7,952 bases of DNA from a virus (Monodnaviria; Loebvirae; Hofneiviricota; Faserviricetes; Tubulavirales; Inoviridae). Below are positions 7,873-7,952 of this stretch, piece by piece. Location: IMG/VR virus record IMGVR_UViG_2609459852_000002. One strand, given 5' to 3'. A program made the translations under genes and the position numbers. The notes under the pieces were generated by a model. That model ran no database searches. It saw nothing but the letters and a program-made list of their open reading frames with translations, and was not told the origin of the DNA. Positions within the stretch are counted from its first letter, which is position 1, and each line of letters opens with the position of its first letter.

Positions 7873-7899
7873 AGTGCGCACAATGGCGTTATGTATAAA
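7873..7899 (+). other. dif-like site (XerC-like arm AGTGCGCACAA, short central region, XerD-like arm TTATGTATAAA), inverted relative to the site at 1-14
   Basis: 9/11 and 8/11 matches to the E. coli dif arms. The XerC-like arm is complementary to window bases 4-14 with one mismatch. Confidence 0.45.
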
Positions 7900-7937
7900 A
7901 AGGCCGCTGCGGTGGAAAGTATCGCAGCGGCCTTTTC
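7897..7937. terminator. Bidirectional rho-independent terminator forming the core of a longer palindrome (~7887-7947)
   Basis: AAAAAGGCCGCTGCG - 11-nt loop - CGCAGCGGCCTTTT, a 10-bp GC-rich stem with an A-run upstream and T-run downstream. The inverted repeat extends outwards into CGTTATGT(A/T)…AAAA on both sides. Confidence 0.65.
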
Positions 7938-7952
7938 AACATAACGCGTGTC

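Follow-up and report, generated by a model that had tools for sequence, protein, structure and literature searches.

The 7,952-nt inovirus sequence held in IMG/VR as record IMGVR_UViG_2609459852_000002 (hereafter the window, meaning this whole stretch of DNA) carries near its right end a dif-like site, a GC-rich hairpin and an inverted XerD-like arm, and the inverted XerC arm that would complete a second dif-like site lies at its left end. The locus thus raises the question whether the two ends together form a phage attachment site (attP) and, if so, by which route the phage enters the chromosome of its host. An initial annotation, made from the letters alone, had proposed an attP of the CTXphi type, in which two inverted dif-like sites pair in single-stranded DNA (ssDNA), and had taken the window for about one genome unit of a circular phage or of a tandem prophage array. 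The arm and hairpin coordinates it gave are correct to the base, and junctions, fold and RstA/RstR homologues support its reading of the site in silico. As set out below, the best explanation, and a very probable one, is that the window represents a temperate, integrase-free inovirus of Escherichia coli that uses its host's XerC and XerD recombinases and the chromosomal dif site by way of a CTXphi-type ssDNA attP.

Fifteen complete E. coli chromosomes match the window over its full length at an identity of at least 99%. In E. coli JNE21-003 a head-to-tail pair of copies, repeating at exactly 7,952 bp, lies between a LysR-family gene and hipA, E. coli AST20 likewise carries two copies in tandem with a period of 7,952 bp, and E. 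coli AST240 is a single-copy lysogen with a unit of 7,934 bp. Deletion of the prophage array from the host sequence in silico predicts an unoccupied site of 417 bp, and this site is found at 100% identity, with an intact dif inside it, in other E. coli genomes; the insertion is therefore precise at dif. Taken together, the exact tandem period and the real empty site establish that the 7,952 bp of the window are exactly one genome unit of a filamentous E. coli prophage integrated at dif. The joined window ends occur as real DNA, namely as the internal junction of the tandem prophages in JNE21-003 and AST20, so that the inverted XerC arm at the left end does complete the site, and in a circular relative (see below) the site is contiguous. 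A direct repeat of 13 bp, ACATTATGCGCAC, stands at every prophage boundary, in single prophages and arrays alike. The further statement of the initial annotation, that the window is not a single prophage with direct-repeat junctions, was in this respect too strong: AST240 holds a single copy, and the source of the window fits either arrangement.

All large open reading frames (ORFs) of the window lie on the minus strand and amount to a complete inovirus gene set. Because the structural and assembly genes are encoded there, the minus strand is the gene-sense strand, and judging by this gene orientation it would also be the packaged strand. Joining the window ends yields a palindrome of 92-94 nt that consists of an inverted dif-like site (site 2), an apex hairpin and a forward dif-like site (site 1), and that reads 5'-AGTGCGCATAA / TGTGACACGCG / TTATGTTGAAA - apex hairpin - TTTATACATAA / CGCCA / TTGTGCGCACT-3' on the gene-sense strand (Table 1). 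A comparison with the host's own dif had been suggested at the outset; measured against E. coli dif, GGTGCGCATAA TGTATA TTATGTTAAAT, which lies intact in the empty site, the attP arms agree at 8-10 of 11 positions. The spacers do not follow dif, as neither site has the 6-nt spacer: that of site 1, with 5 nt, is too short for a double-stranded Xer site, and site 2 would be a poor substrate as double-stranded DNA (dsDNA), with an 11-bp spacer that is nearly twice the 6 bp of dif. The site 2 spacer spans the window junction (minus strand TGT GACAC GCG), and its homology to the dif overlap is restricted to the XerC side, where TGT is shared; the XerD side reads GCG here, and GCG, ACG or TCG among the variants compared below, versus ATA in dif. 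The stem of the apex hairpin has a core in which GGCCGCTGCG (7902-7911) pairs with CGCAGCGGCC (7923-7932), and an A-run and a T-run border it on its two sides.

The individual parts of this structure carry limited weight. A search for RGTGCGCAYAA with at most one mismatch finds two places only in the window, the arms of site 1 and site 2, a count that is weak alone, since 0.51 places are expected and at least two occur in 22 of 200 shuffles, and the XerD-like arms by themselves are not significant. The composite structure is far beyond chance. An inverted-repeat search returns three nested inverted repeats at the joined ends, and folding of both strands, a check likewise suggested with the initial annotation, gives highly stable structures with -43.6 kcal/mol (z = -10.9) for the minus strand and -41.6 kcal/mol (z = -9.4) for the plus strand, neither of them equalled by any of 200 shuffles; the relevant strand is the minus, gene-sense one. 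Its predicted fold is one long hairpin in which the XerC arms and the XerD arms form duplexes, the TG and GCG of the overlap are paired and the six bases TGACAC are bulged out; the duplex of the site 1 XerC-like arm with bases 4-14 includes, on the minus strand, one T.G wobble. The forked hairpin that had been anticipated is not what the fold gives, which is a single unbranched hairpin of ~92 nt, unlike the ~150-nt fork of CTXphi. According to this model, site 2 would make sense as an Xer substrate only once the gene-sense strand folds, with site 1 providing the complementary strand.

A stable palindrome between genes could also serve mainly as a transcription terminator or minus-strand origin, in which case the dif-like arms would be an att scar or core with no role in pairing. 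Hairpins in the intergenic region of Ff phages act as minus-strand origin and packaging signal, and the 14-bp GC-rich stem is placed in the window between the A-run and the T-run as well as between transcription units that converge, the pIV operon reading along the minus strand and the RstR-like side along the plus strand. The terminator scan admits loops of up to 8 nt, so that the apex hairpin with its loop of 11 nt went uncalled. A terminator would moreover leave unexplained why two sets of paired dif-like arms with conserved spacers of 5 and 11 nt flank it and why the crossover falls exactly in the palindrome, and we therefore consider it very improbable that this is the main function of the element. 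Since the A-run and T-run flank the stem, the apex hairpin may additionally be a bidirectional terminator, and such a dual role would be compatible with a CTXphi-type attP.

The prophage junctions locate the crossover. On the LysR side (left), the junction is ATTTAACATAA-TATACA-TTATGCGCAC-T, that is, the host XerD arm and the complete host overlap followed by a phage-type XerC arm (T at window position 14). In the internal junction, where the window end is joined to the window start, a phage-type XerC arm adjoins the 11-nt spacer and the XerD-like arm of the phage; the hipA-side (right) junction has this same XerD-like arm and spacer with a host-type XerC arm, whose final base is C. On the side of the LysR gene, dif is thus rebuilt in near-perfect form (AGTGCGCATAA TGTATA TTATGTTAAAT), and a hybrid with an 11-bp spacer, presumably inactive, stands on the hipA side. 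As every overlap stays with its own XerD arm, the crossover lies where the XerC arm meets the TGT of site 2 or within this TGT (window 1-3). No AGTGCGCACAA-TGTATA junction occurs among the observed prophage junctions, so that site 1 was not the crossover site. The same junctions bear on recombination of the TLCphi type, in which XerD would exchange first and a complete, reversible two-step Xer reaction would follow. It would draw on the same host machinery and the same target dif (PMC4246890), but the overlap is linked to its own XerD arm in every junction, and the homology to dif is confined to the XerC side (TGT), with GCG facing ATA on the XerD side; we give this possibility next to no credence.

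To place the site among related phages, IMG/VR inovirus contigs were searched with two patterns. A pattern made of the arms only finds 10 contigs, all of which have the same apex stem with a varying loop although the stem was not required, and a pattern made of the apex hairpin only finds ~46 contigs, in whose listed flanks the dif-like arms and the 5-nt short spacer recur, again without having been required. Contigs with this cassette encode at least three unrelated types of replication initiator (Rep) as well as Zot proteins that are 35-68% identical or undetectable, and by BLAST the window's RstA-type Rep shows no resemblance to the other Rep type that accompanies the cassette; given this diversity of Rep and Zot around it, the attP cassette is a shared module in a mosaic phage group. 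BLAST detects the cassette or its remnants in ~900 of 5,426 complete E. coli genomes. One relative, the 7,439-bp circular 'plasmid unnamed4' of E. coli A37 (NZ_CP195780), has the attP as a contiguous stretch at ~4583-4676, downstream of pIV and on the gene-sense strand; the record is annotated as a plasmid, but its coat, pIII-like, DUF2523, Zot, secretin, Rep and G5P genes mark it as the replicative form of an inovirus. The attP pattern and the Zot protein used as queries against the genome-contig collection gave no matches.

Thirty distinct full-length cassettes were compared, the length of the short spacer being set to 5 nt by the extraction pattern. The short spacer reads TGACG or TGGCG, and the long spacer measures 10 or 11 nt, starts with TGT and ends with CG in all 30, with 5-6 middle bases that vary freely, as a bulge would predict. 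Site 2 hardly changes and stays near the dif sequence, and site 1 is the one that drifts, for instance to GGTTCGCACAA. Where the two sites differ, the change is most often T/C or G/A, which amounts to G.T wobbles on the gene-sense strand and C.A mismatches on the other (79 versus 26 cells), and correspondingly the gene-sense strand folds better in 30 of 31 variants, by 1.8 kcal/mol on average; coming from related sequences with few independent positions, the counts are supportive rather than decisive. Compensatory covariation is not demonstrable because the stems are almost invariant, so that support comes from conservation together with the strand-biased wobbles.

These comparisons also bear on an explanation after the manner of VGJphi, by which one of the dif-like sites would be an ordinary double-stranded attP integrated reversibly by XerCD and its inverted partner would be incidental. 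A crossover at the boundary of XerC arm and overlap in site 2 fits a double-stranded as well as a single-stranded substrate, and VGJphi-type phages, too, use an XerC-first exchange that is resolved by host replication (PMC4246890). Their attP, however, is a single 29-bp site, whereas here two inverted sites with spacers of 5 and 11 nt, and none of 6 nt, are present; the hipA-side junction keeps the 11-bp spacer and would thus be unable to pair productively with the rebuilt dif; and mosaic phages have kept the apex hairpin, the partner site and the spacer lengths, which an incidental remnant would not have been. As the arm differences in addition favour pairing on one strand, we hold this explanation to be unlikely.

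For an attP of the CTXphi type, the following course of integration can be envisaged. In the ssDNA form of the phage, the two inverted dif-like sites would anneal into one Xer substrate with an XerC-arm duplex, an XerD-arm duplex and a part-paired overlap, as modelled in the fold. XerC, if it acts as in CTXphi, would cleave after AGTGCGCATAA, the crossover position shown by the junctions, and swap that strand with dif, the shared TGT stabilising the exchange. The mismatch of GCG against ATA beside the XerD arm would presumably block a second exchange by XerD, leaving the pseudo-Holliday junction to be resolved by replication. This would produce the near-perfect dif on the LysR side and the 11-bp-spacer hybrid on the hipA side; with the hybrid presumed inactive, the prophage would have no Xer excision and integration would probably be irreversible, while the rebuilt dif could accept further copies and so give rise to tandem arrays. 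By analogy with CTXphi, the RstA-like initiator would regenerate unit-length ssDNA, from origin to next origin, by rolling-circle replication.

Several points weigh against this reading. The junction sequences alone fit equally well any Xer crossover in dsDNA at the XerC side of site 2. The XerD-arm duplex of this phage contains two mismatches, T.T and G.A. In the pattern searches the constant stem (hairpin search) and the constant arms (arm search) were imposed by the patterns themselves, so that only the cross-comparison is informative, and the strand bias derives from non-independent sequences, with gene orientation checked in the window, the A37 replicative form and the tandem prophage of NZ_OW968288 (see below) only. 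The 111-aa ORF at the position equivalent to RstB (5293-5628) shows no BLASTP similarity to RstB, which is annotated as the CTXphi integration protein in the V. cholerae CTX-family prophage GU942563; RstB is a feature of CTXphi's own rather than one that defines the attP class, and the window phage may possess an analogous ssDNA-binding protein. Finally, XerC dependence, the ssDNA substrate and irreversibility are, for the window phage, all carried over from CTXphi by analogy.

Beyond the individual phage, the analysis establishes where an E. coli prophage with poor annotation (RefSeq lists 6 of its 10 genes as 'hypothetical protein') truly begins and ends and what the logic of its integration is, and it indicates that a compact form of ssDNA integration in the CTXphi mode is common among Enterobacteriaceae. 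Being short, with 92 nt, and unbranched, the site might be a convenient minimal substrate for studies of Xer/ssDNA recombination in E. coli. A more far-reaching proposal, which we regard as rather doubtful, is that the cassette is a portable and self-contained 'minimal' ssDNA attP swapped as a unit among otherwise unrelated enterobacterial inoviruses, that remnants on plasmids record ssDNA insertions or captures outside dif, and that the apex doubles as a bidirectional terminator or minus-strand origin.

Degenerate copies of the cassette are found by BLAST at ~496 places on large E. coli plasmids. In these remnants one can still recognise site 1, the apex hairpin and the XerD-like arm, but the XerC arm of site 2 is destroyed; the copy at 4003-4075 of the locus on plasmid p1 of E. 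coli W224N (NZ_CP094340), for example, is situated beside an STM4504-family gene and an IS200C fragment. A cargo gene shared with the prophages was considered and rejected, as the STM4504-family protein has no homology to the DUF2971 protein next to the attP of the prophage in E. coli NZ_OW968288. The chromosome of E. coli A37 also matches the same short query stretch as its replicative form.

The prophage in NZ_OW968288 is a different tandem dif prophage with a unit of ~9.2 kb and a HigA-family antitoxin gene. At 870-935 and 10080-10135 of this locus, ~60 nt of the hipA-side flank of the host dif lie inside the prophage genome, directly after the XerC arm of site 2, which looks like host DNA captured by read-through replication from the prophage. 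A second, different attP variant at 19775-19867, at the hipA-proximal end of the array and beside IS1, has the long spacer TGTACGACACG and the site 1 XerC-like arm GATGCGCACAA, which points to successive integration of different phages at a single dif site.

The coordinates of the attP elements and of the phage genes are collected in Table 1. Domain and profile searches found no integrase or recombinase domain among the window proteins. The RstA-like initiator and the RstR-like repressor are homologous to proteins of CTXphi, and because of this homology the window phage and CTXphi are related by descent and not in form alone. The conservation of the RstR-like protein, 68% against 33% for the adjacent Rep/RstA, is unusually high for an E. 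coli phage compared with a Vibrio phage, and relatives of the RstR-like ORF adjoin different Rep types in other contigs. The small ORFs near the attP (7459-7674, 7723-7863, 6-236 and 80-247) have no match to a PHROG family. Within the pIII-like gene, 13.2 tandem copies of an 18-nt unit at window 3276-3513 encode a glycine-rich linker, (GSGTGT)n; this repeat accounts for the extra BLAST places in some genomes. The AST240 unit is shorter than the window by 18 bp (7,934 against 7,952 bp), a difference equal in length to one such repeat unit. The intergenic stretch between pIV and the attP (window 69-262) shares ~82-87% identity with its counterpart in inoviruses that are otherwise unrelated, for example the A37 replicative form, and may hold a packaging signal or origin; a strong packaging-signal hairpin was sought in the intergenic region 15-273, where the fold is not significant (z = -1.9), and an Rfam scan of the window at gathering thresholds gave no matches.

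Table 1. Features of the window, with sites 1 and 2 of the attP listed in the order of their plus-strand positions.
Feature	Position	Strand	Basis or remark
Site 2 spacer, final 3 nt (aca); minus-strand TGT, the first 3 nt of the dif overlap TGTATA	1..3	-	Junctions; TGT kept in 30/30 variants
13-bp core common to dif, ACATTATGCGCAC	1..13	+	Direct repeat at each prophage boundary
Site 2 XerC arm, plus-strand ttatgcgcact (TTATGCGCACT), minus-strand AGTGCGCATAA	4..14	-	10/11 vs dif arm
Inovirus structural/assembly module	274..5112	-	Domain/profile searches
Secretin/pIV	274-1533	-	
Zot/pI	1530-2588	-	
DUF2523/pVI-like protein	2600-2887	-	
pIII-like protein	2905-4554	-	
Coat protein (Phage_Coat_B-like)	4864-5112	-	
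RstA-like rolling-circle replication initiator (Pfam Rep_trans)	5638..6834	-	33% identity over 380 aligned positions, E = 6e-60
RstR-like repressor, 70 aa, divergent from the main operon	7169..7381	+	68% identity over 56 aa to the RstR-like protein of V. cholerae CTX-family prophage GU942563
Site 1 XerC-like arm AGTGCGCACAA	7873..7883	+	9/11 vs dif; lower strand of the duplex between the XerC arms when the gene-sense strand is folded
Site 1 spacer TGGCG, 5 nt	7884..7888	+	Sequence reading
Site 1 XerD-like arm TTATGTATAAA	7889..7899	+	8/11 vs dif; inverted-repeat search
Apex hairpin: perfect 14-bp stem 7898-7911 / 7923-7936 (with A/T extension, 100%), 11-nt loop 7912-7922	7898..7936	.	Inverted-repeat search and fold
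Site 2 XerD-like arm TTTCAACATAA (minus strand TTATGTTGAAA)	7934..7944	-	9/11 vs dif; nearly invariant across the family
Site 2 spacer, first 8 nt in plus-strand coordinates (cgcgtgtc)	7945..7952	-	Sequence, junctions, fold, variants

This particular phage appears to be undescribed: a megablast of the whole window against the phage collection gave no match, the closest Zot protein in that collection is 39% identical to that of the window, the structural module is present in just 27-31 of 5,426 complete E. coli genomes, and the literature search found no paper on it.

For a comparison with CTXphi itself, the tandem and host junctions were taken from the prophage GU942563, and CTXphi attP(+) was folded in the same way as the window. 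Its attP reads AGTGCGTATTA-TGTGGCGCGGCA(12)-TTATGTTGAGG, ~90 nt, TAACATAA-TGGCGTA(7)-TAATACGCATT on the gene-sense strand, in agreement with the published attP1/attP2 table (PMC3089051, Table II), and corresponds to the attP(+) hairpin of attP1 and attP2 described by Val et al. 2005 according to the summaries in PMC3089051, PMC3442271 and PMC4246890, the sources on which the folded (+) ssDNA, XerC-only catalysis, the prevention of a second exchange by missing XerD-side homology, resolution of the pseudo-Holliday junction by replication, irreversibility and rolling-circle regeneration of CTXphi rest. The fold of CTXphi attP(+) has paired arms, a 5-nt bulge (6 nt in the window) and a paired GCG. 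At one end of the GU942563 array the host XerC arm is followed by the phage overlap, and at the other the phage XerC arm by TGTATG and the host XerD arm. The two phages thus share two inverted dif-like sites with a long spacer (12 nt in CTXphi, 11 in the window) and a short one (7 and 5 nt), of which the long-spacer site precedes the other on the gene-sense strand, between the last morphogenesis gene and the divergent rstR; an overlap that starts with TGT, as does that of the host dif; the same junction products and polarity relative to the genes; tandem arrays; and the lack of an integrase. They differ in that the CTXphi attP is ~150 nt long with a forked apex and ~90 nt between the sites, whereas that of the window is ~92 nt long and unbranched with a single 14-bp apex hairpin, and in that the window arms match E. 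coli dif rather than V. cholerae dif1. The window phage furthermore encodes its own pIV secretin, which the annotated prophage GU942563 does not, and has no toxin genes.

Among the CTXphi-type relatives listed in the literature are RS1, Ypfphi and CUS-1phi (PMC4246890). The attP sites of CUS-1phi and Ypfphi have features for direct ssDNA integration, an inference credited to Val et al. 2005 (PMC3089051), and Ypfphi is described as having inverted pairs of XerC/XerD binding sites, copies in tandem and one end at which dif is rebuilt (PMC4266046); given these descriptions, a CTXphi-type element was already established in Enterobacteriaceae. Like the window phage, Ypfphi (Yersinia pestis) and CUS-1phi (E. 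coli O18:K1:H7) are enterobacterial inoviruses that reside at dif, often in tandem, with dif rebuilt at one end, and Ypfphi also has an RstR homologue. Indirect evidence and published descriptions suggest that the window phage differs from both. Its Rep is of the RstA type, as against genes II and V of Ypfphi, for which homology to the UPphi genes has been reported (PMC7307601), and the recognised CUS-1 hosts RS218, UTI89, IHE3034 and S88 are absent from the list of genomes with the structural module, their presence in the collection being unchecked. UPphi (PMC7307601) resembles the window phage in its tandem integration at E. coli dif and differs from it in being related to IKe/I2-2 and in having a different replication module; its site is given as 'a copy of dif' with only ~15 bases repeated, and the paper mentions neither an attP nor a hairpin (PMC7307601). 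Strain ECONIH2, reported to harbour a tandem triple of UPphi (PMC7307601), carries according to BLAST a copy of the same attP cassette at ~83% identity.

The integrative mobile elements exploiting Xer (IMEX) of the VGJphi and TLCphi types likewise rely on host XerCD and dif in place of an integrase, but they use a single double-stranded attP reversibly, with XerD acting first in the case of TLCphi (PMC4246890), whereas the window phage has no usable double-stranded site. Neither the single double-stranded attP with a dif-like spacer that marks the VGJphi type nor the XerD-side crossover of the TLCphi type is found here, and BLASTP likewise shows no counterpart of RstB, the ssDNA-binding integration protein of CTXphi, at the equivalent position. 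In common with the CTXphi type, the window phage shows an inverted pair of dif-like sites, abnormal spacers, the fold in silico, homology on the XerC side only, one-sided rebuilding of dif, and tandem copies with an RstA-type Rep and no integrase. No new mechanism is thereby revealed; the kind of element is already well understood, and this phage is its new example.
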